Shown: piece after piece, positions 12,915 through 61,397 of the stretch
Numbering within the stretch: position 1 is the first letter of the stretch
Layout of the letters: each line of letters begins with the position of its first letter
Position numbers and translations under genes: made by a program
The notes under the pieces: generated by a model
Told to the model about the DNA's origin: nothing
The model's input: only the letters and a program-made list of their open reading frames with translations
The model's database searches: none
Assembly: GCA_039630575.1 (NCBI GenBank)
Contig: JBCNUW010000001.1
Location: 659-64,658, forward strand
Length of the DNA stretch: 64,000 bases
DNA from: Candidatus Hydrothermales bacterium
Lineage (GTDB): Bacteria > Hydrothermota > Hydrothermia > Hydrothermales > JAJRUZ01
Direction of reading: 5' to 3'

Positions 12915-15900
12915 ATGGGTAAATTAAAAAAACTATTCCTTTTAGCTCCAATTCTATTTTGGAGCTCTATTCTCTATTCGGAAAAAGTGGCTGAACCTGA
13001 ATTCAAAGTTGTAAGTATAACACCCCTAGATAACAAAGTTCCAAGTCCTGTTTTTGACACTTTCAGAGTATGGCCTGGTGCTACTGCTAATACCACAAGG
13101 GAAGTTGCTGTTGGAAAAAGTTTTAAAGGTATGCATGACGATACAATAAGAATTGTAACTGTCCAATCAGCTGGAACGAGATATCTTGTAATTGCTACTG
13201 ATACCTCTACTAATAATTTTGGTAGGAATAAATTTAGAATAGCGTTTCCTTACACATTTCCTACAGGGATTACAGCCAATTCTGTAGCATTAGGTAATGT
13301 TGATGGTGATTATTATACTGACATACTTGTTGGAACTGGAGCCTCACCTTTTACAGTATATTGGTTTGAATGGAGTGAGGTAGCAACTAGTTTTCAACTT
13401 CAAAGCTCCTTTAACGCACCTGCTGCTGTTAACGATATTGTGATAGGTGATGCTGACAATGATGGAAACAGTAATGAAATAATTCTTACAACTGCTACTA
13501 CTTCGCCTCCTCAAATTTGGAGATATATTTGGCAAGCAGGGTCTCTTGTAGGAACCCAGATAAATCTTACAGGTACTGTTGCTGCAAGAGGAGTTGCAAT
13601 AGGTGATATAAGGCCTGATATACCTGGTAATGAGATATACGTGGTAGGATCTACTAATATTTGGATGGTTTACTGGGATGGTTCAACCTGGGTTGTATCC
13701 ACAATAACTACAGGTGTATCAGCTTCTTGGGATATTGTTATTGGTGATATAAATTTATCTCTTCCTGGAAACGAATTTGCAGTAGTTCATGGTTCAACGA
13801 GCTATCAAGTTTCTGTTTGGAACTGGACTGGTGTCTGGAGCGGAATAGCCTATAGGTTTACAGCTACTTGGGGAACAACTGATAATGACATAGCTATCGG
13901 TGATATTGTAACAGATAACTACGGAGTAGAGATGATATTAGTAGGTGGTGCCTCTACTACGGCTATTCCGTATTTATTCTGGATTGGTCCTGGCGGAAGT
14001 GGTTGGGTTTACCCTCTTCCTAAAGTTAGATCAGGTCAGGCTGATTATGGAGTGGCAATTGGGAACATTAATAAATTCAGACATTTCAACAATGAAATTG
14101 TTTTAAGTGGAGGAGGTTCTCTTCTTGAGATTGAACAGAGAGTTTATCCAAACGATATCGGAACTTATTGGATCAGAATGAAAAATGGAACTGCTGTAAG
14201 AAATGTCCCTGATACTATAATTATAGGTATATTTAATGCTGGTTATTTACCACAGTCAAACTTTAATATAAATTACAATCTTAAAATAAGACCTATTTCA
14301 GGATCTGTTTCATATTTAGGGGTTTTGAACCCGAATCAAACTGATGTTATTAAAATTCCTTTCAGCTATACCTTTACTGGATTAGATACCCTTTTTGTTA
14401 CTACAGCTTTAGCTTCGGATCAGAACACCGCAAATGACAGGACAGCATTGCATCTTGAGGTATATGATGATACAACAAGATGTGCTTCAGGATTTAATCC
14501 AGTGCTGTTCCCTCCATCAAATTCAACTGTTCCTCCGACCTCTTGGCAAAGAGTAATTCTTTCAGGTATTTATAATTGGGCAAGAACTACTTCACCATCT
14601 TCTCCTGCTGCACCAGTTTTAGAAGGGTATGCAGTAGCTATGTACCCTTCCTATTCTGCCTCTTCAGGTTCTATGGCAAGGTTAATCACACACCCTATAA
14701 GTGTTGGAAACACTGCAAGAAAATTAAAATTAAGATTTTACATGTATGGTGACCCAGGATATGCTACTAATCCTGATTCCATAGTAGTTGAATACTCCTA
14801 TGATGCAATTAATTTTATGAGACTTGCTAGTTTTCCAAGATATGCTGCTACTGCTGGCTGGCGTAGGTTTGATGTTGATATAGGAGATTTTCCACCAAAC
14901 AGAACAATTTATGTTTCTTTTCTTGCAAAAAGTGGCTTTGGAAATAACATGTTTATTGATTCTGTAAGAATAGTTGCCACAACTCCAACAGCAGCCAGTA
15001 ACGATGCTCAAGTTATGTCTATTTTACCTATTTCAAAACCTACTTATGTTGGTCAACCATACCAAGTTAAGGTTGTTATAAGAAACTTAGGATTAAATCC
15101 TCTAACCTCAACACAAGTCTTTTATACTTTAGGTGGACAAGATACAGTAAAAGAAAATTGGACAGGTTATCTTGAAATTAACTCCCTTGATACTTTCACT
15201 TTCTCTACACCCCTAGTTTTCTCAGACACAGGAGTATATACTCTCTATAGTGGAACTAGACTTACTGGTGATCAGAACTCTCAAAACGATGTTACATCAA
15301 CTGTTTTGAGAGTATGTCCTAGCTCTCATATTCCGCCTTATACTAAAAATTTTGATGAAAACTGGTTAAATTCGACTGAACCTCCTTTCTGTGGATGGAC
15401 GATAGTTGACGGAGGAAATGAACCATCCCCCGCAGTTAACACTAACGATTGGCATAGGTATGTTTCAGCATCTCCAGCAAGAACAGTTGCGAGAGTTTAC
15501 TTTTCACCGGTTGAACAGCATAATGATTGGCTAATTTCTCCAAGATTTGATTGTTCAGCTTGGGGAACTTATACACTTTCCTTCTGGCACTATTATAATG
15601 ATTGGTCAGTTGCAAGCCCTGACTCTGGAAGAGTGCTATTATCAACAGATGGTGGAAGCACTTGGATTACTTTGGCTAGGTATTCGAATGTGGATGATTC
15701 TGGAAGAAAAACCTTTGACATAAGTAACCTCGTAAATAATAAAAATAATGTAAAAATTGCTTTTCATTATGTTGCATATGATGAATTTTACTGGTATGTT
15801 GATGATTTCTCCTTGAGTTTTGTTCCTGATAATCAAGGACCAATTATTTCCTTTATTAGAAGAGCGCAAAATGCATATAGAGGTCCATTCACAGTAAAAG

Positions 15901-17588
15901 CTTTAATAAGGGATAATGTTTCAGGTTTGCTTTCAGATACACTTTATTACATAGTGAATGACCAAGTTTACGTAGCACCAAGAATATCTGTTAGAGGAGA
16001 TACCTTTACATATCAGATACCAGATTTACCAGCTGGAACTGTTGTTGATTATTACTTAAAGGCAAGAGATAATGCTTTAAATGTAACAAAGACAGGGATA
16101 ATGACTTTTTGTGTTCTTGAGCCTTTCTCTACAGGAGTAGTAGCCTACGGTGTACCAGGAGAAAATAATGTAAAGCTTAGTTGGGATACACCTTATGAGG
16201 AGATAAGGCATTATTCATATCCTTATTACGTCTGGTCCGGTTGGTCACAAGGTGATATGATAGCAACAAGATTTACTCCACAATACTATCCCTATAAGCT
16301 TGAAGCTGTAGCAATGCTCTTTTATCAGTATCAAGACACTATTGAACTTCTTGTATGGAGAGATGATGGGTCACATTATCCTGGTGTTTTAGTATATTCT
16401 GATACTTTTGCTATTACTTCAGTTTATCCTCAATATCAGGTTTTTGATCTTTCCTCACAGAATATTGTAATAAGTGATAATGATTTTCATGTTGGAATAA
16501 AATGGCTTGGTCCTGATAGACCATACATAATTTCTGATGACACTTCCTTCACAGGAAGAAGTAAAATCTACACAGGAACTCACTTTATACCATTTGGTTA
16601 TGACTTTGTAATTTCTTCATTTGTGTCGTACTTACCCTCAACTGTGCTTAATTCTGGGAAAGAGATGAAAATTGTTCATGACATAGATTTAAGTACTCCT
16701 ATAAATATTCCAAATACTCCACTTGTAAGACTTAAAAAGAACATAATTCAAAATATAGATTCTTACAAGAAATACAATCTATATCTAGATCTTTTTGGAA
16801 TACAGAATTTTGAGATTTTAAAATCTCAAACACAAGGTGGACCATATACTTCTATTGGTACAACCAATCAAACCTATTTTGTCGACACAGATGTTAGCTC
16901 AGGTAACATTTACTATTATGTTATTGCTACAAACTACACTAATCCTGATACTCAGACACTTTCAAACGAAGTGCAGATTGCTGTGGACTTTCATTCACCT
17001 GTTTATTCTAACACAGTCTATAACATAGTTGGTAATGAATTAATTGTTTCAACAAGAATAACAGATTGGTCAGGTCTTTATTACGATACACTTGGTTATA
17101 GATTTGATGGTGGAAACTTTAGCTTTATAACTCATGCTTTTGTTAGTGGTTCAAATTACTATTACACCATTCCATTAACATCTGGGGTAGGTGTAATTGA
17201 GTTTTATCTCTTCTGTAGAGATGCTTCTTGGTGGAGAAATTATGCAAGGGATCCTGTAAGCGGCTATTATCAGTATACTGGAATAGGTGAAATTACAAAG
17301 GATATTCCTTCTAAGTTCTTCTTCAATGTTCTTAACACAGTTTCAAATGATGGATTTATCAAATTTGCCTACGGAATACCAGCTGAGACTGAAGTCGATA
17401 TAACAATTTATAGTGTAACAGGTAGAAAGATAAAGACCCTTGTGAATGGTGTTAGAAAACCTGGTGTATACTACCTACTTTGGAATAAGGAAGATGAAAA
17501 AGGCAAAAAGGTAGGACAAGGAACATATCTTGTGAAGGTTAAAACAAAAGAAAAAGAGGAAATTAAGAAGATAATCCTTATAAGATAA
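12915..17588 (+). CDS. Giant secreted adhesin-like protein: FG-GAP-like propeller, two CARDB, cleaved-adhesin/jelly-roll, Ig/FN3, FlgD-Ig/T9SS-type CTD
   Basis: Signal peptide; repeated (I/L)G(D/N)xxxDxxxEI motifs; DQNxxND CARDB ends; HNDWLISPRFD; C-terminal IYSVTGRKIKTL...WNKEDEKGKKVGQGTYLV...KKIIL. Confidence 0.8.
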   Translation: MGKLKKLFLLAPILFWSSILYSEKVAEPEFKVVSITPLDNKVPSPVFDTFRVWPGATANTTREVAVGKSFKGMHDDTIRIVTVQSAGTRYLVIATDTSTNNFGRNKFRIAFPYTFPTGITANSVALGNVDGDYYTDILVGTGASPFTVYWFEWSEVATSFQLQSSFNAPAAVNDIVIGDADNDGNSNEIILTTATTSPPQIWRYIWQAGSLVGTQINLTGTVAARGVAIGDIRPDIPGNEIYVVGSTNIWMVYWDGSTWVVSTITTGVSASWDIVIGDINLSLPGNEFAVVHGSTSYQVSVWNWTGVWSGIAYRFTATWGTTDNDIAIGDIVTDNYGVEMILVGGASTTAIPYLFWIGPGGSGWVYPLPKVRSGQADYGVAIGNINKFRHFNNEIVLSGGGSLLEIEQRVYPNDIGTYWIRMKNGTAVRNVPDTIIIGIFNAGYLPQSNFNINYNLKIRPISGSVSYLGVLNPNQTDVIKIPFSYTFTGLDTLFVTTALASDQNTANDRTALHLEVYDDTTRCASGFNPVLFPPSNSTVPPTSWQRVILSGIYNWARTTSPSSPAAPVLEGYAVAMYPSYSASSGSMARLITHPISVGNTARKLKLRFYMYGDPGYATNPDSIVVEYSYDAINFMRLASFPRYAATAGWRRFDVDIGDFPPNRTIYVSFLAKSGFGNNMFIDSVRIVATTPTAASNDAQVMSILPISKPTYVGQPYQVKVVIRNLGLNPLTSTQVFYTLGGQDTVKENWTGYLEINSLDTFTFSTPLVFSDTGVYTLYSGTRLTGDQNSQNDVTSTVLRVCPSSHIPPYTKNFDENWLNSTEPPFCGWTIVDGGNEPSPAVNTNDWHRYVSASPARTVARVYFSPVEQHNDWLISPRFDCSAWGTYTLSFWHYYNDWSVASPDSGRVLLSTDGGSTWITLARYSNVDDSGRKTFDISNLVNNKNNVKIAFHYVAYDEFYWYVDDFSLSFVPDNQGPIISFIRRAQNAYRGPFTVKALIRDNVSGLLSDTLYYIVNDQVYVAPRISVRGDTFTYQIPDLPAGTVVDYYLKARDNALNVTKTGIMTFCVLEPFSTGVVAYGVPGENNVKLSWDTPYEEIRHYSYPYYVWSGWSQGDMIATRFTPQYYPYKLEAVAMLFYQYQDTIELLVWRDDGSHYPGVLVYSDTFAITSVYPQYQVFDLSSQNIVISDNDFHVGIKWLGPDRPYIISDDTSFTGRSKIYTGTHFIPFGYDFVISSFVSYLPSTVLNSGKEMKIVHDIDLSTPINIPNTPLVRLKKNIIQNIDSYKKYNLYLDLFGIQNFEILKSQTQGGPYTSIGTTNQTYFVDTDVSSGNIYYYVIATNYTNPDTQTLSNEVQIAVDFHSPVYSNTVYNIVGNELIVSTRITDWSGLYYDTLGYRFDGGNFSFITHAFVSGSNYYYTIPLTSGVGVIEFYLFCRDASWWRNYARDPVSGYYQYTGIGEITKDIPSKFFFNVLNTVSNDGFIKFAYGIPAETEVDITIYSVTGRKIKTLVNGVRKPGVYYLLWNKEDEKGKKVGQGTYLVKVKTKEKEEIKKIILIR

Positions 17589-19363: not shown

Positions 19364-20020
19364 CTATTTAAATTTTAAAATCTTTTTATTTTCTATACCT
19401 TTTTTAAAAATTATTTTTCCTCTCTTATTTTTTCTTCCTATAATATCATAGAAGACATCTTCATTTTTCCCTACTTTTATATGTTCAATCTTCTTTTTTT
19501 CCTCAATCTCAAGTCCAAATCCTGAATCATAAAAGACATATCCAAGAGAATCGGTTGAGTTAGGTTGCAAATAAATTCGTAGTGATAATTTTATAAGAGA
19601 AGCATCAGTAGGCGAAACCTCTTCAGCAATAAGTTCTTGCCAAGATGACATATCGATTGAATAAGATGAATAAAAATAATTACCGAGTGAAGTTGAATCA
19701 CTCTTACACCAGGTACAATATACTCTTCCCCTAACATCAGGATCATTGTCGTAAATATAAAAGATTATTTTGTGATTCAACCCAGTACCTATAACAGGAA
19801 CAAATTGCACAAGCGCCTCAGTATAATTTGTCGTTTTACTTGCTCTTTCTATTTTAACTGAATGCAAACCCACTTTTATTATGTTTTTCTCTTTATAAAC
19901 AGGCAGGGCAGTTGGATGACTAACACTCCAATCGGAAGGTTTTGTCGTGTCTTGCCAACTCTCAAAATCCGCATTTTTAATAACTAAATTTATTTGAGTT
20001 ATTAAAATTAAAGCCCACAT
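19364..20020 (-). CDS. Exported carbohydrate-binding-module-like (jelly-roll) protein with a reduced C-terminal sorting-like tail
   Basis: NLVIKNADFESW...PSDW and SWQEL...VFYD; tail FYDIIGRK...KIIFKK...KILKFK. SD GAGGAGG upstream. Confidence 0.6.
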   Translation of the reverse strand: MWALILITQINLVIKNADFESWQDTTKPSDWSVSHPTALPVYKEKNIIKVGLHSVKIERASKTTNYTEALVQFVPVIGTGLNHKIIFYIYDNDPDVRGRVYCTWCKSDSTSLGNYFYSSYSIDMSSWQELIAEEVSPTDASLIKLSLRIYLQPNSTDSLGYVFYDSGFGLEIEEKKKIEHIKVGKNEDVFYDIIGRKNKRGKIIFKKGIENKKILKFK

Positions 20021-50902: not shown

Positions 50903-51931
50903 ATGAAAAGTATTCCAGAACCTTTAATTTTTAGAAAAAATAAACTTTACATTTTAGATCAAAGAAAAATACCGTTTAAGGAAAAATACTTTGTTGCAAG
51001 TAGTTTCTGTGATGTAAAAGTTGCTATTAAGAATATGATATTAAGAGGAGCCCCCTTAATTGGTATAGCAGGAGCCTATGGAATTTTATTAGGTTTAAGA
51101 AAAAAATTTAATTTAGATAATTTTTATAAGATGAAAGAAAGTCTACTTCTACTCAGAAAGACCCCCTATAATCTAAACTATACACTTTCAATATTAGAAA
51201 GACTAATAAAAAACGGAGCTGGTTATAAAGATCTTGAAAAAGAAGTAGAAAATATCTTTGAACAAGAAAAGATAAGGTGTGAGAGAATAGGTAAAAATGG
51301 ATTCAAAATTTTCAAGGAAAAACAATATAAAAAAATTTTAACTCATTGTAATACAGGGAAATTGGCAACTGGTGGTATAGGTACTGCTCTTGGGGTTATT
51401 TATAAATCAAAAAAGATAATTGAAATGGTTTATGTGACCGAGACAAGACCTTACTTTCAAGGTGCAAGATTAACATCATATGAATTGTTTAAGCTAAATA
51501 TACCGTTTAAAATCATTCTTGACGGAGAAGCATCCTTTTTGATGCAAAAAGGTGAGGTCGATGCTATCATAGTAGGTGCTGATAGAATAACTCAGGATGG
51601 TTATTTAGCAAACAAAGTTGGAACTTTGTCTCTTGCAATTTCAGCAAAAGAGTTTGGTATACCATTTTATGTAGCTTCACCGGTCTCAACAATTGATTTT
51701 AACACAAAGGGAATTGAAAATATTCAGATAGAGGAAAGAAGAGGTGATGAGGTTAAAGGATGGGGTAAGACAAAATGGGTGCTAGAGAACTTTGACGTAA
51801 TTTACTATTCGTTTGACTTAACACCACCATATCTTATAAAAAATATAATAACTGATTATGGTAATTTTAATCCTAATGAGCTAAAAATGGTTCAATTCCA
51901 TGAGGAAAGAAAGGAGTTTACTAATGCCTAA
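50903..51931 (+). CDS. mtnA: S-methyl-5-thioribose-1-phosphate isomerase
   Basis: LDQR, RGAPLIG, THCNTGKLAT, ETRPYFQGARLT, VGADRI and NKVGT. Confidence 0.93.
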   Translation: MKSIPEPLIFRKNKLYILDQRKIPFKEKYFVASSFCDVKVAIKNMILRGAPLIGIAGAYGILLGLRKKFNLDNFYKMKESLLLLRKTPYNLNYTLSILERLIKNGAGYKDLEKEVENIFEQEKIRCERIGKNGFKIFKEKQYKKILTHCNTGKLATGGIGTALGVIYKSKKIIEMVYVTETRPYFQGARLTSYELFKLNIPFKIILDGEASFLMQKGEVDAIIVGADRITQDGYLANKVGTLSLAISAKEFGIPFYVASPVSTIDFNTKGIENIQIEERRGDEVKGWGKTKWVLENFDVIYYSFDLTPPYLIKNIITDYGNFNPNELKMVQFHEERKEFTNA

Positions 51932-52184
51932 CAGACACTACGCTTTTGTTCTAATAAAAGTTCAAGTTGGGAAAGTGCCTTCAGTTGCTCAAAGACTTTA
52001 TAATATAAATGAAGTTAGGGAAATATTTATGGTTACAGGACCTTTTGATGTTCTTGCTATCATTGAGACAGAAAGTTATGAAAGATTAGGAGACATACTT
52101 GCAGAAGAAATTCAAAAAATACCTGGAATAGTTGAAACACAAACATTAATGGCCTTTAGAACCTATAAATACTTAGAAAAATGA
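51924..52184 (+). CDS. Stand-alone Lrp/AsnC ligand-binding (RAM) domain protein
   Basis: AFVLIKV...VTGPFDVLA...IQKIPGIVETQTL, with no HTH. SD AAGGAG at 51911-51916 supports ATG 51924 rather than 51900. Confidence 0.85.
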   Translation: MPNRHYAFVLIKVQVGKVPSVAQRLYNINEVREIFMVTGPFDVLAIIETESYERLGDILAEEIQKIPGIVETQTLMAFRTYKYLEK

Positions 52185-53914
52185 GAAAATTTTTTTTAAT
52201 TTTAGTTCTTTTTAATTTTTATCTTTTTGCAACGATCACAAGTTTTACTGTTACCCCATCCAATTTTACAGTTGGGGATTACGTAACTATTTCAATTACA
52301 GCTGATAGAGACGGAGCAATTTCGTTTTTTTTAGCTAACAGTACAAACCTGATTTATCCTAACACTGGTAATATAATAGGAGGCGTTTACCAAGGTTTAC
52401 ATAGAATTTTAAAAGCCGGGATAGACTCAATTTATGTAGCCGGAACCCCAGGAAATGCCTATAGCAATCCCTTTACTTCAAACCCAAAACCCCCAAGTAG
52501 AGTTATCATTTTATTTAACAATCAGCTTCATCTACCTGGTGATAGTATAAACAAGGGGCGAAGTTCAATTTCCTTACCAATTTTTCCTGTAGGAGAGCGT
52601 ATAAAATTTAATGTTAAACTAACTGACATTTTTTATAACGAAAGTCCTTATTCTGATACTTTAAATATAAACATCATCACTGATGACCCATACGCCACAA
52701 TTACTGATTCCGTTTATTTTTTACCAGGAGAAACCACTAAAGATGTAGAAGTTATTTTCAAAAGAGCAACAATTCCTTATCAGTTTTCTCCTAATGATAG
52801 AAGAGTTTTATATGGTCTTGTATCTGTGTCAAATTTTAAGGGAGATACTGCAAGGTATAACATAAATTCGCCTTTCTTTCATGTTAAATCCGGTGATTAC
52901 TCAAAACTTTTGATTCTTGAATACTGGGATTCTTCAGGTGTAATACAAGGAGAAATTTTTGATCCAGGAAATGAAAGTGTTGGAAAGATTTCAAAATTCA
53001 AACCCCATCCTTCTGGTTTAAATTTTTGGCTTGAGGCTCTAGCATGTGATCGTTACTTTAACAGGGTTACTGAAAATAACTTAAAGGTATTTTTAAATTT
53101 TGATACACCTCTTCCCCAAGGAAGTACTGTTTATCCTGAAACGGTAAACTTGAGAGATGGAAGAGACACATTTACACTTAACATAGTATCCTCTGGGCTT
53201 TATTCATGCTACCTTAATGATAAAGTTTTTAATATTAAAAGCAGCGGAGAATTAATTGACATAAGAGGCAACTTCTATAATATAACAGTAGATCCAGATA
53301 CAATTCTTTCCTGTACCCAACTTTTCAGATTCATTTTAAGGTACTATGATGTTTCAGGAAATCAAACAAATTCAAATCATAAAGTTTTTTTGAGTCCAGT
53401 AATAGCATCTAATAGAAATCAAAGATCTAAAGGTTATCTATCTGATACAGCCTTTAATTTAACTCAGGGAATTTTAGATGTATACTTAAGATACTGTACA
53501 AGTGCACCTTTTGAGGAAATATCAATAAAAGTTACTGATGAAATAGGGACATATCCTTTCTTTTCTGAGCCTATATTTGTAAATAGTTTTTCGGTAGGGG
53601 GTGATACCTTTTCGGTCTATCCAAATCCTTTTGGAAATGTAAAATATACTGGAGTAAAATACGATATGCTTAATATTGAATTTTATCTTCCTGAACCATC
53701 TGATGTAGAGATTTCTATTTATGATCTTTTTGGACACCCTGTAAAGAAACATAGAATTCCGTCACTTTCTCCTGGTAAGCATAAGTTAACATGGGATGGA
53801 AGAAACGACTTAGGTAAAAAGGTTTCAAGTGGTTCTTACATTTTAATTCTTAATGCTGTAAAGGGGGCAAGAACAGTTTATAAAAAAATAAAAAGTATTT
53901 CAGTAATATGGTGA
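52181..53914 (+). CDS. Exported Ig-rich protein with C-terminal FlgD-Ig/T9SS-type sorting domain
   Basis: Signal peptide; VYPNPF...IYDLFGHPV...WDGRNDLGKKVSSGSYIL...SISVIW. Confidence 0.8.
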   Translation: MRKFFLILVLFNFYLFATITSFTVTPSNFTVGDYVTISITADRDGAISFFLANSTNLIYPNTGNIIGGVYQGLHRILKAGIDSIYVAGTPGNAYSNPFTSNPKPPSRVIILFNNQLHLPGDSINKGRSSISLPIFPVGERIKFNVKLTDIFYNESPYSDTLNINIITDDPYATITDSVYFLPGETTKDVEVIFKRATIPYQFSPNDRRVLYGLVSVSNFKGDTARYNINSPFFHVKSGDYSKLLILEYWDSSGVIQGEIFDPGNESVGKISKFKPHPSGLNFWLEALACDRYFNRVTENNLKVFLNFDTPLPQGSTVYPETVNLRDGRDTFTLNIVSSGLYSCYLNDKVFNIKSSGELIDIRGNFYNITVDPDTILSCTQLFRFILRYYDVSGNQTNSNHKVFLSPVIASNRNQRSKGYLSDTAFNLTQGILDVYLRYCTSAPFEEISIKVTDEIGTYPFFSEPIFVNSFSVGGDTFSVYPNPFGNVKYTGVKYDMLNIEFYLPEPSDVEISIYDLFGHPVKKHRIPSLSPGKHKLTWDGRNDLGKKVSSGSYILILNAVKGARTVYKKIKSISVIW

Positions 53915-55173
53915 TTTTAAATATATTAAAATTTTTATTTTTAGGAGCCTGGGGTATGCCAGGTTCCTTTATGTTATACTCACCCTCTGCAAGATCCTTT
54001 GCTTTGGGTTCAGCATACACAGCTTTTGTGGGTGACCCTGCCTCCATATACTTCAATCCAGCAGGAATTGCTGAATCAAATCCTCAAGAAATTCAATTTT
54101 CACAGAGTTCTCTACCTCTTGGAGGTAACTATGGATGGGTAGGATATGTAAGGCCGACACAGAAAATTGGTAATTTTGGAGCAGCTCTTTTATTTGTGAA
54201 TTCAGGTAAGACAAAAGTTACTGATCCTGAAAACAAGTTTGGCGGAAATTTTGTTCATTTTGAATCAGCCTTTTATCTAACTTACGCGAAGGAACTTTCA
54301 AATTATGTTGATGCTGGATTGTCTTATAAGTTGCTTTATAAAACAATATCAAGATTTTCCTCTTTAGGTCATGCATTTGATCTTGGTTTTATCTTTTTAC
54401 CTCAAAATGTTTTTAAGGTTGGCGTTGCCTTTTTAAATCTACTAAATGTTCCTTATAAATTAATAGAGGAATCAGAAAAAATTCCACTAACAATTAGGGC
54501 AGGAATTTTATCAAGTTTTTTTGAAGGAAAATTTAATTTGCTTTTTGATTTTTATAATGTAAATGAATGGAATGAGAACTATTATTCTTTTGGAGCAGAG
54601 TACTACCCTGTTGATATTCTCTCTCTAAGGGTTGGTATGACAAAGTACAGTTTTACAGCTGGATCAGGAATCTTTCTTAAACTTCCAGGTAAAAGAATAG
54701 GTATAGATTTGGGTGGTTCTTATCATTATGAGAGTAACAACTTGTTTCCCTTCACTGGATTTATTACTCTTTATTTTCAATTTGCTGGATTTCGTGTTGA
54801 AGTTGCTCCAAATGTTAGAGTTTTTTCTCCCAAATCTCCAGAAAATAACATATTAAGGATTGATCTTTTTACTCAAGCAAGAAAAGAGGTTGAAAGATGG
54901 CAATTTGTTATAAAGGACTATAAAGGTGAAATTAAAAGGATTTATAAAGATTTTGGTGAAGCACCTAAAGAAATTTTATGGGACGGAAGAGATGACCTTG
55001 GTATACTTGTTCAAGATGGTTCTTACTATTATGAATTTAGAGTTGTTCAAAGGGATGGTAGTGTACTTATAGATACAGGTTTTCTTTCAGCAGTTAGAAC
55101 TATAGGACCAAAGGGTGAAATTTTTTATAGGGAAAAAGTTGAAGAAGAAATAAAAGAGGAAGAAGTAAAATGA
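53908..55173 (+). CDS. PorV/PorQ (FadL-like) outer-membrane barrel with C-terminal FlgD-Ig domain
   Basis: SARSFALGSAYTAFVGDPASIYFNPAGIA; alternating beta-strands to TLYFQF; then VFSP...WQFVIKD...WDGRDDLG..VQDGSYYY. Confidence 0.8.
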   Translation: MVILNILKFLFLGAWGMPGSFMLYSPSARSFALGSAYTAFVGDPASIYFNPAGIAESNPQEIQFSQSSLPLGGNYGWVGYVRPTQKIGNFGAALLFVNSGKTKVTDPENKFGGNFVHFESAFYLTYAKELSNYVDAGLSYKLLYKTISRFSSLGHAFDLGFIFLPQNVFKVGVAFLNLLNVPYKLIEESEKIPLTIRAGILSSFFEGKFNLLFDFYNVNEWNENYYSFGAEYYPVDILSLRVGMTKYSFTAGSGIFLKLPGKRIGIDLGGSYHYESNNLFPFTGFITLYFQFAGFRVEVAPNVRVFSPKSPENNILRIDLFTQARKEVERWQFVIKDYKGEIKRIYKDFGEAPKEILWDGRDDLGILVQDGSYYYEFRVVQRDGSVLIDTGFLSAVRTIGPKGEIFYREKVEEEIKEEEVK

Positions 55174-57938
55174 TTTTTCTCGTACTTATTACTATTTTAT
55201 TTTCTCCACAGGAAATTAGATTAATTGAAGATGCAGAACTTGTTTTCCATGAGGGTCTTTATAATGAGGCAATAAATCTTTACGATAAAATCCTTAAGAC
55301 AAATTTAGGTAAAGAAATGAAAAACGAAATTCTCTTTAGAATAGGAGAATGTTATTTTAATTTGGGAGAATATGGAAAGGCACTAAAAGTTTTTGAAGAT
55401 TTAGAGTTTAGGACACGTAAAACTTACCTTTATCCGGAAGTTCTCTATGCATTAGGTATTGTTCATTTAGCACTTGATCATTATGATAAAGCGAAGTTTT
55501 ATCTAGTTGAAAGGATAAAGGAGTTTCCCTCTTATGTAAATGATGTGAGGATAAGTGAAGGGCAGGGGATTTATTATTTTACACAGACAATATATGAAAG
55601 TGGTTATGAAAAATTAAAAAATGCAATTTCAGGAGTGGGTATTTTTTATAAAGCTTTAACGCTTGCAAGATTAAAAAGACCTGTTGAAGCTTTGAAAGAG
55701 TTCAAAAAAGTTCAGTTGCTTTACCCTCTTACACCACTTTCAGAATACGCATCTTATGAATCAGCTGAAGCTATGTTTATCAACAATGACTTTACCGGGG
55801 CTTTAAATTTATATCAAAAATTTATTGAACAATTTGGTATTTCTCCTCTTGTTGACTATGCAAAATACAAAATAGGAGTTTGTTATCTTCACCTTGGTTT
55901 ACCATCTCAAGCGTTAACCTATTTTAATGCTCTACTTGGACATCCCGATGAAATTCTAGTTTCCCACTCCTATCTGATGGGTGGGATAGCTTTAAGGGAG
56001 ATGAAGGACTATGAAAAATCAATTAAATATCTTTTAAAATCTGCTTTTGACTTTCCTCAGGTAGGCTCTGCTCCTTTAGCTCATATGGAACTTGGAAAAA
56101 CATACCTTTTAACTGGGAATCATGAACAGGCGCTTATAGCCTTTAAACAACTTGCAAACACTTATGTAACAGGAGAATTTGCAGGTTTAGGAGACTACCT
56201 TGCTGCAAGTATTCTCTATCAAAATAAAAGAATTTTGGAAGCTCAGTTTCAACTCGAAAACCTTATAAAATATTATCCTAAATCTCATATAATTCCTGCT
56301 GCATACGTTCTACTTTTAAAATGTATGATTGATACAAGACAAACAAAAGAAGCGATTTTAAGAGGTGAAGAATTTTTTAAGAGTGAAGTTTATAAACTTG
56401 ATGGATTAAATGAAAATTATAGGGAGAAGTGGTTCAATAGAATAAAATTAATGTTAGCAGAGGCTTATTATCAGGAGAGAGATTTACAGAATGCAATAAA
56501 ATACTATGAAGAATTGGTTGAGAGTGGAGATCCTGATATCATGCCTGAGGTATTCAATGGCCTTGGTTGGTGCTATCTTGAGAGCGAAAGATACGAAGGT
56601 GCAATTCAAAAATTTGATGTAGTAATCAGTTCATATCAAAGGGATACTCTTGCCCTTGTATCTTCTATTTTTGGTAAAGCAGTCACAATATATAATTCTT
56701 GTGCATTTTTACAAGATCAGTCCCAGAAAGAAGAAAGGTTCAAAAATGCTGCCTTTACTTTTAAGGAAGTTGTAAGACTTTATCCTTATTCTGAGCTTGC
56801 TCCTGCCTCTTTATTTTATGCAGGAGACGCTTTTGCAAAAGCAAACCTTTATGGTAACGCTGTCCAGGAATGGGATGCAGTTTTATCGGAATATCCTAAC
56901 ACAGAGTATGCGGGTTATGCAGCCTATTGGTTAGGCGACACCTATTTTAGGGCTGGAGAATTAGAAAAGGCTGTTTCTTATTTTAAAATCTTACTTGAAC
57001 AGTATCCGGAGAACAAATTTGTAAAAGAGGGATATTTGAGATTAGCATCAACTTACTATACCATGAAGGATTATGACAATGCCAGGGATATTATAAAGAA
57101 ATTTCTTTCTTTATTTCCTGAGGATTCACTTGTAAGGGATGCCAAATCTCTTTTAGAACAGGTTTATTATTTTAAACTTGAGGAAGAGCCGGAAAGGTTA
57201 GAGGAATATGCAAAAGAGTTTCCAGAAAGTGAACTACTTGCGCAACAACTCTATAGGGAAGCGGTAAAGCTCTATAATGAAAAGAAGTTTGAAGAAGCAA
57301 TTGAAAAAGCAAAGAGAGTTATACTTCTTTTCCCTTCTTCCACGAATGCAGCAGAAGCACAAAAGGTTGTTGTAGCTTCCTATGGTGCTTTAAACAATTT
57401 CAAAGCAATGGCTGAGGAAGCAGAAAAATTTGTTCAGTATTTCCCCCAACATGAGGAAGTACCTGTGATGCTAAAAGCGGAGGCTCAAGGTTTGATACAA
57501 ATAGAAGACTATATTAAAGCAAGTGAAGTTCTAGATAAACTGATATCAAATTATCCCTCAAGTCCATTGGCAAAGGAGGGAATAATTCTTAAGGCAGAGG
57601 TTTTATTAAATTTAGGTAAGTTGAGAGAGAGTATAAAGATCCTTGAGGAGACTTCACCAACAGAGGAATATGCTACAAGATACTATTATCTTTTAGGAGA
57701 GGCTTATAATAAGTTAGGTCAACCAGATAGGGCAATAAACTATTATTTATCTCTTTTAAAATTCGGAGATATGGATGATCCTTACAGGATAAAAGGACTT
57801 TATACACTTGCAAATCTTTATCAGTTAAAAGGTGATAATAGAAATGCGGCAGCTATTTATGAAGCTGTTGCTCAGATAACAACTGATCAAAATATAAAAA
57901 ATGATGCCCTTTCAAGGGCAAGTATTTTAAAAAAGTAA
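55170..57938 (+). CDS. Large periplasmic TPR protein (CpoB/BamD-type repeats)
   Basis: Many TPRs with YPxS/T-xx-A linkers over 922 aa, and a short hydrophobic N-terminus. Confidence 0.85.
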   Translation: MIFLVLITILFSPQEIRLIEDAELVFHEGLYNEAINLYDKILKTNLGKEMKNEILFRIGECYFNLGEYGKALKVFEDLEFRTRKTYLYPEVLYALGIVHLALDHYDKAKFYLVERIKEFPSYVNDVRISEGQGIYYFTQTIYESGYEKLKNAISGVGIFYKALTLARLKRPVEALKEFKKVQLLYPLTPLSEYASYESAEAMFINNDFTGALNLYQKFIEQFGISPLVDYAKYKIGVCYLHLGLPSQALTYFNALLGHPDEILVSHSYLMGGIALREMKDYEKSIKYLLKSAFDFPQVGSAPLAHMELGKTYLLTGNHEQALIAFKQLANTYVTGEFAGLGDYLAASILYQNKRILEAQFQLENLIKYYPKSHIIPAAYVLLLKCMIDTRQTKEAILRGEEFFKSEVYKLDGLNENYREKWFNRIKLMLAEAYYQERDLQNAIKYYEELVESGDPDIMPEVFNGLGWCYLESERYEGAIQKFDVVISSYQRDTLALVSSIFGKAVTIYNSCAFLQDQSQKEERFKNAAFTFKEVVRLYPYSELAPASLFYAGDAFAKANLYGNAVQEWDAVLSEYPNTEYAGYAAYWLGDTYFRAGELEKAVSYFKILLEQYPENKFVKEGYLRLASTYYTMKDYDNARDIIKKFLSLFPEDSLVRDAKSLLEQVYYFKLEEEPERLEEYAKEFPESELLAQQLYREAVKLYNEKKFEEAIEKAKRVILLFPSSTNAAEAQKVVVASYGALNNFKAMAEEAEKFVQYFPQHEEVPVMLKAEAQGLIQIEDYIKASEVLDKLISNYPSSPLAKEGIILKAEVLLNLGKLRESIKILEETSPTEEYATRYYYLLGEAYNKLGQPDRAINYYLSLLKFGDMDDPYRIKGLYTLANLYQLKGDNRNAAAIYEAVAQITTDQNIKNDALSRASILKK

Positions 57939-57976
57939 AATGAGTTCTAATCTCTTAAAAAATTTTAAAATTTAAA

Positions 57977-58621
57977 ATGATTTTAGGACAACCAATTTTA
58001 AAATTGGCATTAAACCCCTTTATGCTTGTGCTTGAGATCTCCTCGATTTTCGCTTTATGGGCTATTATTGATAGATTTATTGCCTATATGAAATTATCAG
58101 AAAAGGAAGAGCAAAAGATGATTGATAGAACAAAACTTTTAATAGAAAAAGGGAGGTTTGAAGAATTAAAGGCTTTTTCTTCTGCATTAAACAGACCATT
58201 TGCTAAGATTATTAATTTATTGGCGGAGAATATTCACTATCCAAAGGAAGTTTTAGAATCTGTTTTGGAAAGTGCATTAATGCTGACAAGACTTGAACTT
58301 GGTAAAAAATTAAACATTCTTGGAACAATAAGTTATATTGCCCCATTACTTGGACTTTTAGGTACAGTGGTAGGAATTATCCAAGCTTTTTACGCGGTTG
58401 CACAGAAAGGTGCAGCAGTAGGTCCTGAAGCAATGATGGAGGGAGTTGCCATTGCTCTTTTGACAACAGCTCTTGGAATAATGATTGCAGTTCCCTGTGC
58501 AATAATGTATAATTATTTTAGAAATAAAATAGACCACCTTATGGCAAGAATAGAAGTGTCAGCAGAAGAGATTATGAATTTTATGATCTATGTTAAAGAA
58601 CAAAAAGAAAAAGTTCTATGA
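57977..58621 (+). CDS. MotA/TolQ/ExbB proton-channel protein
   Basis: IAPLLGLLGTVVGIIQAF and ALLTTALGIMIAVP; three TM. Confidence 0.93.
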   Translation: MILGQPILKLALNPFMLVLEISSIFALWAIIDRFIAYMKLSEKEEQKMIDRTKLLIEKGRFEELKAFSSALNRPFAKIINLLAENIHYPKEVLESVLESALMLTRLELGKKLNILGTISYIAPLLGLLGTVVGIIQAFYAVAQKGAAVGPEAMMEGVAIALLTTALGIMIAVPCAIMYNYFRNKIDHLMARIEVSAEEIMNFMIYVKEQKEKVL

Positions 58622-59040
58622 TAAGGAAAAAGAAAAGAATAAAAGATACAGATTTTGAGCTTGATTTGACTCCTGCTATAAGTGTTGCCTTGATCCTCGT
58701 TTTAATATTTATAACTGGAGCAACACAGATTTTTCAAACTTGGTTAACTGTGACTTCTCCCAGAGTAAGAAAAGCACCTCAAGTAATTGAAAAAGAACAG
58801 AAAACAGAATTTAAGGTTAATATCCATCTTTTATCAAGTGGCCAAATTTTATTAAATGAAGAGGTTATCACTCAAAAAAAACTTGATTCACTACTTCCTG
58901 AGTTGATGATAAGGAGTGCTACAGGACTTGTTTTAGTAAGTGCAGATTCTGAAGTAGAACATGGAAAAGTTGTTGAAATAATAGATCTTGCAAAACAAAA
59001 AGGTGCAAGAGAAGTAGCTTTATTAAAGAGGGTAAAGTAA
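58618..59040 (+). CDS. ExbD/TolR family protein 1 (conserved TM Asp replaced by Ser)
   Basis: LDLTPAISVALILVLIF and VSADSEVEHGKVVEIIDLAKQKG. Confidence 0.85.
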   Translation: MIRKKKRIKDTDFELDLTPAISVALILVLIFITGATQIFQTWLTVTSPRVRKAPQVIEKEQKTEFKVNIHLLSSGQILLNEEVITQKKLDSLLPELMIRSATGLVLVSADSEVEHGKVVEIIDLAKQKGAREVALLKRVK

Positions 59041-59474
59041 TGGAGAATAACAAAGGTGAGTTTGCAAAAATTAACGTAACACCCTTGACAGATGTCGCTT
59101 TTACGTTACTGATTACACTTATGCTTGTTACATCTTATATGGCAGTAAAACAACCGCCTTTCAGAGTAATTTTACCAGATGTAGAAACAGTTGAACCAAG
59201 AGGAGCAGATGTTGTTACTCTTGACTTAGATGAAAAAGGTGAAAATCTTGCAATAAACGGGTATATTATAAAATGGGACAATTATATAAAGGTTTTGAAG
59301 GAGGAAGCGATGAGAGATCCATATAGGTTGCTTCTTATAAGAGCAGACAAAGGAACACCTCATGGTGTTGTTATGAAGGTTCTTTCTGATATAAAGAAAA
59401 TGAATTCGGAATTAATTTTAGAGGATAAAGAAAGCTTTTCAAAAATTGCTTTTGGAACAAGAAAGAAAAGATGA
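59040..59474 (+). CDS. ExbD/TolR family protein 2
   Basis: INVTPLTDVAFTLLI and IRADKGTPHGVVMKV. Confidence 0.9.
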   Translation: MENNKGEFAKINVTPLTDVAFTLLITLMLVTSYMAVKQPPFRVILPDVETVEPRGADVVTLDLDEKGENLAINGYIIKWDNYIKVLKEEAMRDPYRLLLIRADKGTPHGVVMKVLSDIKKMNSELILEDKESFSKIAFGTRKKR

Positions 59475-60526
59475 AAGTTTCAACTTCTAAAGCATATGGG
59501 TATATATATAAAACTCCTAAGTATTCAAATTATACAGGGTTTACAGTATCGTTAATAGTTCATGCACTGATTTTATTACTTTTACTTTTAAGACAAAGTG
59601 TTTACAGTGAAGGGACTTCACTATCGGTAACATTATTAGAAGAGGAAATTAAAAAGAGAAAAATAGAGGAAAAGAGAGAAACTGTAAAAAAAGAGGAAGA
59701 AAAAAAACCGGGTCCAGAAGTTAGACATAAACCTAATCTTTTTGCAGCTATACAGAGAACAATAGAACCACCACCACCGATAACAAACATAAATATAAAA
59801 CAAAAAATAGACGTACCAAAAATTGAAATATCAAAGAATTTACCAATTGAACCAGCACCTATTGTTCCTTTAAAGGACATTGAAATTAAGTCTGTTACAG
59901 AAGATATAGGTCCTCAAGCGAAGATAGATATAAAATCTTTAAAAATAGAAGAATCGGGTATCGGATCAGATATAGTTGTTGGACAGGGGGCTCCCACATC
60001 AGAAATTCTCAAAAGACCAGCTTACAAACCGACTGTTGATATATCCAAGCAAGTTGCAGAAAGTGGTTTGGGTCAAGGTGGAATTGCTCAATGGGGTCCA
60101 GGAGGCGGTAGTGGTACTGTTGGGTCTAAAAAAGTTGAATTAAAAGTTAAGATGGAAGAGCCTCCACCTTCTTCTCCTTTACCTTCACCTTCTACTTCTT
60201 TTAAGCCTGAGATTAGAAAAAAAGAGAAAAAAATAGAAGTTGAAATCTCGGGTTCTATAGCAGGAAGAAAGATAATTGCAAAATTTCTGCCTTCTTATCC
60301 CTCCTGGGCAGCAGAGAGGGGAGTTGAAGCTGCTATTACAGTAAAAGTAGAAGTTGAACCGGACGGCACTGTTAGAAAAAATGTATTAGTTATAGGAACA
60401 AGCGGATATCCTAATTGGGACAATATTGTAAAAAATTCTGTCCTGTCTTGGAAATTTGAATCTTTACCAAGTGATATTAAAACAATTCAATCAGGTTATA
60501 TAACTTTTAGATTTATTCTTGAATGA
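59471..60526 (+). CDS. TonB-family energy transducer
   Basis: TM with SxxxH (SLIVH); Lys/Glu-, Pro- and Gly-rich linker; TonB_C motif PSYPSWAAERGVE...VEPDGTV...SG...WKF. Confidence 0.88.
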   Translation: MKVSTSKAYGYIYKTPKYSNYTGFTVSLIVHALILLLLLLRQSVYSEGTSLSVTLLEEEIKKRKIEEKRETVKKEEEKKPGPEVRHKPNLFAAIQRTIEPPPPITNINIKQKIDVPKIEISKNLPIEPAPIVPLKDIEIKSVTEDIGPQAKIDIKSLKIEESGIGSDIVVGQGAPTSEILKRPAYKPTVDISKQVAESGLGQGGIAQWGPGGGSGTVGSKKVELKVKMEEPPPSSPLPSPSTSFKPEIRKKEKKIEVEISGSIAGRKIIAKFLPSYPSWAAERGVEAAITVKVEVEPDGTVRKNVLVIGTSGYPNWDNIVKNSVLSWKFESLPSDIKTIQSGYITFRFILE

Positions 60527-60533
60527 TAATTAG

Positions 60534-61397
60534 ATGAAAAGGTTAATAAATTTTTGTCTTTTTTCATTTCTTTTCTTTTTATATTTGCATGCTCAGGAAT
60601 CTCAATCACCTCAGCAAGAAGTTGAAATCAAAGCTAAATATAAGGGAAAGATAGAAGAAAGAAAACCGATATGGAAGTTAACCTTTAATCTCTTTGATGC
60701 TGCCTACGATCAATTTAAAAATAAGGGTTATATTTTCGATCAAAGATTTGGAAAGGGCAGAATAAAACCACCTTTGCCGTCACTAGCCTCTGAGGAGCTT
60801 AGGAAACCTTGGCTTAATAGTATTGTAAGAGGTGAAGTCGGTATATTCTACCCATTTTATGGTCGAGATTTAAAAAAGTGGAAATTAACAATACTGGATG
60901 GAAAAGGTAAAGTTTTTAGAGTTTTTTCAGGAGAAGACGAGCCTCCGACGAAAATAGTCTGGGATGGAAGGAATGAAAAGGGAGAAGTTCTTGATGTGAG
61001 TTTACTATATTTTTATACTGCAGAAGCAGAGGATGAAGCAGGAAACATTTCAAAAACACCAGAAAGACCCATAAAGCTCTCCGGAATACTCTGGCAAGAT
61101 GGTGTAAACTTTATAATATCTGTTGACGGAAATGAAATTTTTGAAGAAAATTCAGATAGAATAAAAAGGGTTGAGCTATTAGAGGAATCTTTAAGTATAA
61201 TAAAAGAAAAAGCTCAAGTTAAAGTAGAAGTAGTTGTTTATGGTCAAAACCCTGAACTAACAAAAAAAAGATATGAAAATGTCTTAAAATACTTAAGAGA
61301 AAATTTAAGAATACCAAAGGGAAAAGTAATTTATATGGAAGGGTATTTTAAAAGAACTGGTTACGAAACTTCAAGGATAGATTTTAAAATCTTATAA
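60534..61397 (+). CDS. Exported protein with FlgD-Ig domain and degenerate OmpA-like C-terminal domain
   Basis: Signal peptide (LHA-Q); WKLTILDGKG...WDGRNEKG...AEDEAGN; then IFEENS...VEVVVYG..LTKKRYENVLKYL...SRIDF. Confidence 0.65.
   Translation: MKRLINFCLFSFLFFLYLHAQESQSPQQEVEIKAKYKGKIEERKPIWKLTFNLFDAAYDQFKNKGYIFDQRFGKGRIKPPLPSLASEELRKPWLNSIVRGEVGIFYPFYGRDLKKWKLTILDGKGKVFRVFSGEDEPPTKIVWDGRNEKGEVLDVSLLYFYTAEAEDEAGNISKTPERPIKLSGILWQDGVNFIISVDGNEIFEENSDRIKRVELLEESLSIIKEKAQVKVEVVVYGQNPELTKKRYENVLKYLRENLRIPKGKVIYMEGYFKRTGYETSRIDFKIL

Follow-up and report, generated by a model that had tools for sequence, protein, structure and literature searches.

We analysed a 64,000-nt window of the Candidatus Hydrothermales bacterium (WOR-3) assembly GCA_039630575.1 (contig JBCNUW010000001.1), focusing on an operon of eight plus-strand genes, g1 to g8 (52181..61397), which joins outer-membrane parts of the T9SS (type IX secretion system) to a Ton-type motor. 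The operon is a real, widely conserved and apparently undescribed variant of the ExbBD-TonB envelope machines, with an unusual motor and a putative function. What is new is the motor: its paired ExbD subunits have lost a transmembrane Asp reciprocally, in one paralogue or in the other, and Asp-less ExbD1 subunits occur fused to an ExbB. We propose, with a probability of roughly 45%, that the operon encodes a dedicated ion-driven machine in which a private motor pulls a box-like strand of g8, and g8 acts as a detachable anchor for one carrier-cargo pair, the barrel g2 and the exported protein g1.

Gene content and conservation of the operon

The original prediction described eight co-oriented, mostly overlapping genes, and this held: all eight open reading frames (ORFs) lie where they had been placed, five of the seven junctions overlap, and the remaining two are gaps of 38 and 7 bases. 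g1 (52181..53914, 577 aa) encodes an exported protein with a tandem invasin/Big_1-like immunoglobulin (Ig) stalk followed by a FlgD-type C-terminal domain (CTD), and g2 (53908..55173, 421 aa) a PorV-family 14-strand barrel with a C-terminal Ig domain. g3 (55170..57938, 922 aa) is a tetratricopeptide repeat (TPR) protein with repeated YbgF/CpoB-type stretches and a putative periplasmic scaffold. The motor comprises the ExbB/TolQ ring subunit g4 (57977..58621, 214 aa) and the paralogues ExbD1 (g5, 58618..59040, 140 aa) and ExbD2 (g6, 59040..59474, 144 aa). It is followed by the TonB-like transducer g7 (59471..60526, 351 aa) and by g8 (60534..61397, 287 aa), which has a signal peptide, an arm, a FlgD-type Ig domain and an OmpA/MotB-like domain that lacks the canonical peptidoglycan motif. 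Pfam cut-offs are passed by ExbB (MotA_ExbB, g4), both ExbDs (g5, g6), TonB_C (g7) and TPR (g3), and together with Pfam/NCBIfam matches for the CTD protein and the PorV-like barrel they bear out the parts that had been named. Equally correct was the claim that the cluster lacks a TonB-dependent receptor (TBDR), TolB and Pal, none of which was found in Pfam and NCBIfam searches of the cluster proteins. g7 consists of an N-terminal transmembrane helix, a long Pro/Gly-rich linker with conserved motifs and a C-terminal TonB_C domain (residues 274-350), its sole Pfam match; no FHA domain matched in that search, and no relative of g7 was found among viral contigs. With dN/dS of about 0.03-0.16 relative to two congeners, all eight genes are under purifying selection.

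The eight-gene set is conserved across phyla. We fetched 49 WOR-3 regions that surround a match to g8 or g2: 34 carry the full gene order and eight a six-gene core of TPR-ExbB-ExbD-ExbD-TonB-g8, to which g3 belongs, with or without g2; of the remaining seven, four are apparently cut by contig ends and three have no adjacent TPR gene. Operon flanks differ between families, and the one TBDR in these regions belongs to a neighbouring ordinary Ton locus. An ExbD-pattern scan of named genomes returned 77 loci, with g8 or TPR plus ExbB in 40, the six-gene core in 31 and all eight genes in 11; the record labels, which are unverified, read Elusimicrobiota, FCPU426, Goldbacteria, Stahlbacteria and a few Spirochaetia or Methylomirabilis. 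ExbD matches from Myxococcota, Acidobacteriota and Gammaproteobacteria had no g8 and were dropped, and 37 of the 77 loci have neither g8 nor TPR plus ExbB. Soil metagenome contigs found through a g8 subfamily show the same gene order with a g1 near 1000 aa, and in the phylum of genome G161 (Elusimicrobiota) g8 matches at 1e-15 occur in 31 of 101 genomes, 15 of which have them only as tails of ~900-aa proteins. A literature search, of which subscription papers and supplements were outside the scope, found no description of the operon, of a T9SS in WOR-3, of ExbB-ExbD fusions or of ExbD pairs with one Asp; the module, conserved across several uncultured phyla, is apparently undescribed. Variants of the layout were also seen: three loci (L077, L078, L095) have two to four consecutive TPR ORFs in place of the TPR gene, and another (L079) has two tandem g8 copies.

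Reciprocal loss of the transmembrane Asp in ExbD pairs

The site of the transmembrane Asp, a residue considered essential for proton coupling and which we take to be D25 of E. coli ExbD, is occupied by Ser22 (58681-58683) in ExbD1 of the window and by Asp18 (59091-59093) in ExbD2; the loss in ExbD1 had been overlooked in the original prediction. Across 43 complete WOR-3 operon ExbD pairs, the Asp is present in the first gene only in 27, in the second only in 13, in both in three and in neither in none, so that 40/43 pairs carry exactly one, whereas ordinary Ton ExbD pairs in WOR-3 genomes keep both (7/7). In an ExbD tree of 110 rows, the ExbD1 paralogues form one group irrespective of the residue (100/100), separate from the Ton clade, while Asp-less ExbD2 subunits form one group of 26 (99/98) and Asp-less ExbD1 subunits one group of 18 (89/74). 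Because the tree groups by paralogue and not by Asp, the pattern reflects reciprocal losses and not gene swaps. Both Asp residues are present in 31/31 non-WOR-3 metagenome pairs found via g8 and in all 38 genome pairs retrieved with a pattern that itself requires one Asp, four of which are WOR-3-type. Three Elusimicrobiota-phylum loci (L267, L268, L270) have an ExbD2 without Asp, but a third independent loss is not established by them, since the best tree separates them and a single clade is not rejected (p-AU 0.30).

The inert chain is in some cases tied to the ring. In four WOR-3 genomes an ExbB gene is followed by another one that is fused in frame to an Asp-less ExbD1, and then by a free Asp-bearing ExbD2; several databases together yield 16 non-redundant ExbB-ExbD1 fusion proteins, all with Asn or Ser at the Asp site. 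The ring subunit varies as well. g4 keeps Thr130 and Thr164 and has Ile159 at the position of the channel Glu, presumably E176 in E. coli; a Glu four residues before Ile159 might substitute for it. The site is Val or Ile in 8/8 fusion-locus ExbBs and mixed in the one-Asp WOR-3 groups, whereas the Glu is present in 5/5 two-Asp WOR-3 ExbBs and 6/6 Ton ExbBs, and in 57 of 72 ExbBs of the wider scans, the other 15 being unmatched by the pattern. Three further loci (L075, L083, L105) interleave two ExbB genes with two ExbDs, both of which keep the Asp; L075 and L083 have no adjacent TPR or g2 gene, and in both sprA lies ~15 kb past g8 on the same strand.

The sequences suggest that the WOR-3 axle is a heterodimer of ExbD1 and ExbD2. 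PMC9389320 describes a turnstile cycle for 5:2 motors, with a 36-degree step per protonation swap between two axle sites, and the one-Asp pattern would conflict with it: we infer that an axle with one Asp cannot run the two-site cycle as written. With a one-Asp heterodimer as axle, the WOR-3 motor probably pulls from a single site, over a limited angle or in a reciprocating manner, and does not run an alternating two-site cycle. If so, 5:2 motors could work without alternating two-site rotation, with the Asp site kept in either paralogue and the inert chain sometimes fused to a ring subunit. One-Asp motors under purifying selection are natural test objects for the question of whether Ton/Tol-type motors rotate continuously.

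The carrier-cargo pair, the anchor and a proposed mechanism

g2 passes the NCBIfam model PorV_fam (NF033709) at 92.8 bits with a cut-off of 90 and scores below the cut-off of the PorV equivalog. Its AlphaFold2 model (mean pLDDT 84) has an N-terminal hatch, a barrel at about residues 60-292 and an Ig domain at 296-396, and the two structures closest to it in fold are chains of the T9SS translocon, 8gl6_F and 6h3i_F, which we take to be PorV. The model places the Ig domain at the C-terminus, where it would be periplasmic; among the PorV paralogues of the genome only g2 has such a domain. It is homologous to the Ig domain of g8 (HHalign 98.5%), a relationship missed by the original prediction. 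The tail of g1 matches FlgD_ig at E 3.5e-10 and Por_Secre_tail below cut-off, and the protein resembles invasin/Big_1 stalks. Its homologues range from 149 to 1977 aa, are about a bare CTD at 149-182 aa and reach 1000-1977 aa outside WOR-3. By analogy with T9SS carrier-cargo gene pairs, g1 is probably the cognate cargo of g2; according to PMC12618676, T9SS carriers are often cargo-specific and encoded beside their cargo. Of four window proteins that had been listed as CTD-bearing, those at 1-953, 12915-17588 and 52181-53914 (g1) have CTD-type matches and the one at 19364-20020 does not. The latter is a 218-aa exported-looking protein of the minus strand with a very short basic tail like a cut-down CTD, and it has no Pfam or NCBIfam match at E 0.1.

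The assignment of g8 as a FlgD-Ig plus OmpA-like protein stood on structure. In its model, a low-confidence arm (about residues 21-90) precedes a FlgD-like Ig domain and a domain of OmpA/MotB type, the last with Foldseek matches to MotB and OmpA-like domains at E 1.6e-4 to 1e-3, whereas Pfam and NCBIfam searches gave only a weak FlgD_ig match and no OmpA match. Within the arm, after the signal peptide, lies a conserved hydrophobic-x-Gly/Ala strand (residues 27-35; plus strand, 60612..60638); across 143 homologues, position 32 is Val or Ile in 100% and position 34 is Gly or Ala in 90%. We take this strand to be like TonB boxes, partly from general knowledge of such boxes, and treat it as a candidate TonB box. 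Co-folding of g7 TonB_C (residues 252-351) with g8 (21-287) scored 0.00 in two runs; this gives no verdict and is not used as evidence.

Relatives of g8 suggest how it may be tied to g2. Of 130 long relatives, 98 end with an OmpA domain, and seven carry a g2-type barrel, Ig repeats and an OmpA domain on one chain; since these seven start with a g2-type barrel, the barrel-(Ig)n-OmpA architecture exists as a single chain. Judged by domain order, g2 and g8 look like the two pieces of such a chain, the anchor piece having gained a box. FlgD-Ig repeat plus OmpA proteins, which are commonest in Spirochaetota clusters (Lsa66-like), share the Ig type and the C-terminal OmpA-like domain with the operon, and some have the g2-type barrel at the N-terminus; they differ in being single chains, whereas the operon splits barrel from anchor and adds a motor. 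Ig-OmpA proteins of ~930 aa from small genomes of G161's phylum (three examined) are not members, as they show no g2-type barrel match and no operon. At L259:9730-12531, and also in L260 and L261, ~930-aa proteins from small genomes of this phylum look as if a different outer-membrane barrel were joined to the same Ig domain and to an OmpA domain with an intact motif.

In the mechanism that we propose, g1 would cross the outer membrane via the SprA of the genome and stay bound through its CTD to its own carrier g2, as in T9SS carrier-cargo pairs. g2 and g8 would each supply one half of a wall anchor of the barrel-(Ig)n-OmpA type, an architecture seen in the single chains, here with predicted binding between the halves; because the anchor half is a separate protein, the link could be made and broken. 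g7 would grip the TonB-box-like strand on the g8 arm, with g3 as scaffold, and g8 and g3 would link g2 to the wall. An ExbB5-ExbD1-ExbD2 motor would pull via g7, much as TolA pulls TolB off Pal, and this pull would position the g1-g2 platform in the envelope, hold it there or put it under tension. The pull-to-release logic of Tol-Pal fits this model. Tentatively, the operon would add an undescribed, fourth output to those of ExbBD/TolQR-type motors: the motor would operate a detachable wall anchor by which a T9SS-type carrier is moved or held together with its surface protein, and in the WOR-3 form only one axle chain would be protonatable.

Several observations weigh against this proposal. 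One family has no g1 beside the operon, another has a g1 shrunk to about its CTD, and several lineages have g1-g2 apart from the core. The canonical OmpA peptidoglycan motif occurs in 4/143 g8 homologues, which makes wall binding by g8 doubtful; it is also found in just 12/130 long relatives, so the count does not discriminate. A matrix built from the g8 box strands has, in our reading, its best N-terminal match at the pre-plug segment in four of the five TBDRs of the genome, but these segments score only 1.1-6.3 bits versus 6.6 for the 90th background percentile, and the result is a hint only because the scores lie within background. The reciprocal Asp losses may amount to just two evolutionary events, and the missing channel Glu of the window and of every fusion locus is as compatible with erosion as with a changed mechanism.

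Genome context, rival readings and related systems

The genome (1.89 Mb, 94.7% complete) carries a T9SS-like set of outer-membrane parts. SprA/Sov is an 1801-aa ORF away from the operon (309 bits in frame, cut-off 200); PorV_fam has nine matches, five of them reaching the cut-off; a PorU-like protein matches over its full length at 356.8 bits, below the cut-off of 420; and there are 37 CTD matches (PF18962). Searches of this genome for the canonical motor, which had no positive control and could pass over very diverged forms, gave no match to GldM, a single chance-level match to GldL (E 0.095) and no match to GldN/PorN at E 0.1. The genome also contains five TBDRs and three ExbB loci. One is a Ton locus on a single strand (G000:C12:121746-136426), ordered ExbB-ExbD-ExbD-TonB-TBDR and followed by CTD proteins and a PorV paralogue; its order from ExbB to PorV is kept in L063-L065, and both of its ExbDs have the Asp. 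Another, on contig C29, is a Tol-Pal-like run of Pal, TolQ, TolR, TolA-like and TolB-like genes, in which TolA and TolB are read from sequence and order only. As the third ExbB locus, beside separate Ton and Tol-Pal motors, the operon has a dedicated motor. PorV-like paralogues at G000:C7:8177-11035, C18:12132-19122, C45:44142-47706 and C67:23176-29629 each adjoin a large CTD-type protein, which suggests cargo-specific carriers; the one on C18 has a 330-aa, helical-looking C-terminal extension.

The union of T9SS outer-membrane parts with a Ton-type motor, as originally proposed, is supported by the gene set and its synteny, and so is the expectation of many CTD proteins beside SprA without a real GldL, GldM or GldN match. 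The further idea that the operon generally powers type IX-like export where GldLM is missing is contradicted as a requirement. We counted g8 (E 1e-20 or better) as marker in 151 WOR-3 genomes, in which kin are not independent. SprA is present in 149/151, GldM, searched for without a positive control, in 0/151 and the marker in 96 (106 at 1e-5); SprA occurs in 95/96 marker-positive and 54/55 marker-negative genomes. The operon is nested within SprA-bearing genomes and, because marker-negative genomes keep both SprA and CTD cargo, it is not required for them. Three near-complete operon-negative genomes (99-100%, 3-40 contigs), namely G012 (100%, 3 contigs), G024 (99%, 4 contigs) and G018 (99%), have SprA, 26-34 CTD matches and one ExbB of the TBDR-linked Ton type. 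Nor do CTD counts track the operon: among relatives present in both searches, and with G031 (g2 but no g8) left out, 22 operon-positive genomes have a median of 29.5 CTD matches and 10 operon-negative ones a median of 31.5. The SprA set, the PorU-like gene, the several PorV paralogues, the 37 CTD matches and the absence of GldL, GldM and GldN matches described above speak for a general engine, yet with these counts we regard it as very improbable. SprA-type export seems nearly universal in WOR-3 without the known motor; the operon is a candidate energy link for a single carrier, and the SprA-bearing genomes without it show that another energy solution exists. In some near-complete WOR-3 genomes with SprA and ~30 CTD matches, no ExbB-type candidate other than the TBDR-linked Ton motor was found. 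In G012, G024, G018 and G046, diderm genomes that are 99-100% complete, the single MotA/ExbB-family gene is of Ton type and no TolQ was found. The nesting recurs outside WOR-3, where 5/5 operon genomes have an SprA-like ORF, all scoring below the cut-off.

A narrower role in export is more probable, but we still think it unlikely: the motor would only pull g1-loaded g2 from the lateral gate of SprA and replace GldLM and the Hub for this single cargo. PMC10994853 has T9SS energy act on the carrier-substrate complex and makes its extraction from SprA the energy-requiring step. Such a role also agrees with the nesting within SprA-bearing genomes, the periplasmic handle found on g2 alone among the PorV paralogues and the large g1 proteins (1000-1977 aa) outside WOR-3. 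However, other carriers without a handle still have CTD neighbours, the motor is kept where g1 is absent or little more than a CTD, and the operon is not adjacent to sprA in the source genome. The WOR-3 motor could instead be partly degenerate, or work with a changed coupling ion, and serve mainly as a static tether from inner membrane to wall to outer membrane. The lost axle Asp, the loss of the ExbB Glu in many lineages and the degenerate OmpA motif would fit; but at least one Asp is kept in 43/43 WOR-3 pairs and 4/4 fusion loci, both channel Thr residues are kept, and the Asp-less ExbD1 (g5) has dN/dS of about 0.09-0.10, so that a static tether is highly doubtful.

Surface motility of the Agl-Glt type, with the motor moving the g1 adhesin on a g2 platform to propel the cell, seems distinctly unlikely. 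The model given in PMC11761067, a hetero-axle motor with a TonB-like protein and TPR scaffolds linked to an outer-membrane platform, shares with the operon its ring, predicted hetero-axle (AglR5-Q-S), TonB-like and TPR proteins, outer-membrane barrel and surface adhesin, here an invasin-type stalk. The hint that had been drawn from one TolQ-like and two different TolR-like subunits fails: the ordinary Ton locus also has two ExbDs, which is the usual layout in this lineage, and two ExbDs are therefore not an Agl hallmark here. Moreover, g7 scores 20.1 bits with the AgmX/PglI model NF033768 (cut-off 40), the operon transducer has no FHA, ZnR or GYF match, and the conserved unit has no cytoplasmic platform gene. 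PMC9389320 states that the Asp is present in AglQ as well as in AglS, whereas ExbD1 of the window lacks it. In place of GltA/B/H and CglB, the operon has a PorV-type barrel and a CTD cargo; within the operon, to which the searches for GltA/B/H, GltC/D/E/F and CglB were confined, the sole match was GltC, below cut-off at E 0.048. Least probable of all is an ordinary second Ton motor serving the five TBDRs and linked to the other genes by chance. The normal TonB_C of g7 would allow it, but a TBDR-linked Ton motor is already present, the genes stay together across phyla while their flanks change, and the ExbD1 clade is separate from the Ton clade.

The detachable-anchor reading that we prefer sets the operon beside known systems without placing it in any of them. 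Like T9SS, it has a PorV-family carrier beside a CTD cargo and a TPR scaffold, its genome encodes SprA and a PorU-like protein at other places, and energy is predicted to pass from the inner membrane to the carrier. It differs in its ExbB/ExbD/TonB motor encoded with the carrier, in a genome without a GldL, GldM or GldN match, and in the probably periplasmic Ig domain of g2; moreover, about a third of the SprA-bearing WOR-3 genomes can do without it. Tol-Pal likewise combines a motor and transducer with a YbgF/CpoB-type TPR protein and an OmpA-like domain tied to a box-like N-terminal strand. Unlike Tol-Pal, the operon has no TolB propeller or Pal lipoprotein, carries box and OmpA-like domain on one chain, uses two different ExbDs and would act on a barrel with surface cargo; the true Tol-Pal locus is separate. 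With Ton systems the operon has in common the motor families, TonB_C and a TonB-box-like strand on its presumed target. That target would be a periplasmic Ig-OmpA-like protein and not a plugged receptor, no receptor is linked, and most WOR-3 operon ExbD pairs retain one Asp where Ton pairs retain two. By analogy, the operon would work like Tol-Pal and Agl-Glt and uses T9SS carrier parts, yet each of T9SS, Ton, Tol-Pal and Agl-Glt has a tested feature that is missing here, namely a GldLM match, a linked receptor, TolB and Pal within the locus, and a Glt-type transducer, respectively.

Some minor features were noted around these loci. Upstream in the window, an mtnA-like gene and a stand-alone Lrp/AsnC ligand-binding domain (50903-52184) overlap the operon start; this linkage was not seen beyond the genus. 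In G012, a ~4.7-kb block downstream of sprA occurs twice in tandem (L062:8750-17580), either as a duplication or as an assembly artefact. An operon-negative WOR-3 genome carries a flagellar-looking cluster with MotA, MotB-like and FlgD-like genes (L067, G047:C1).

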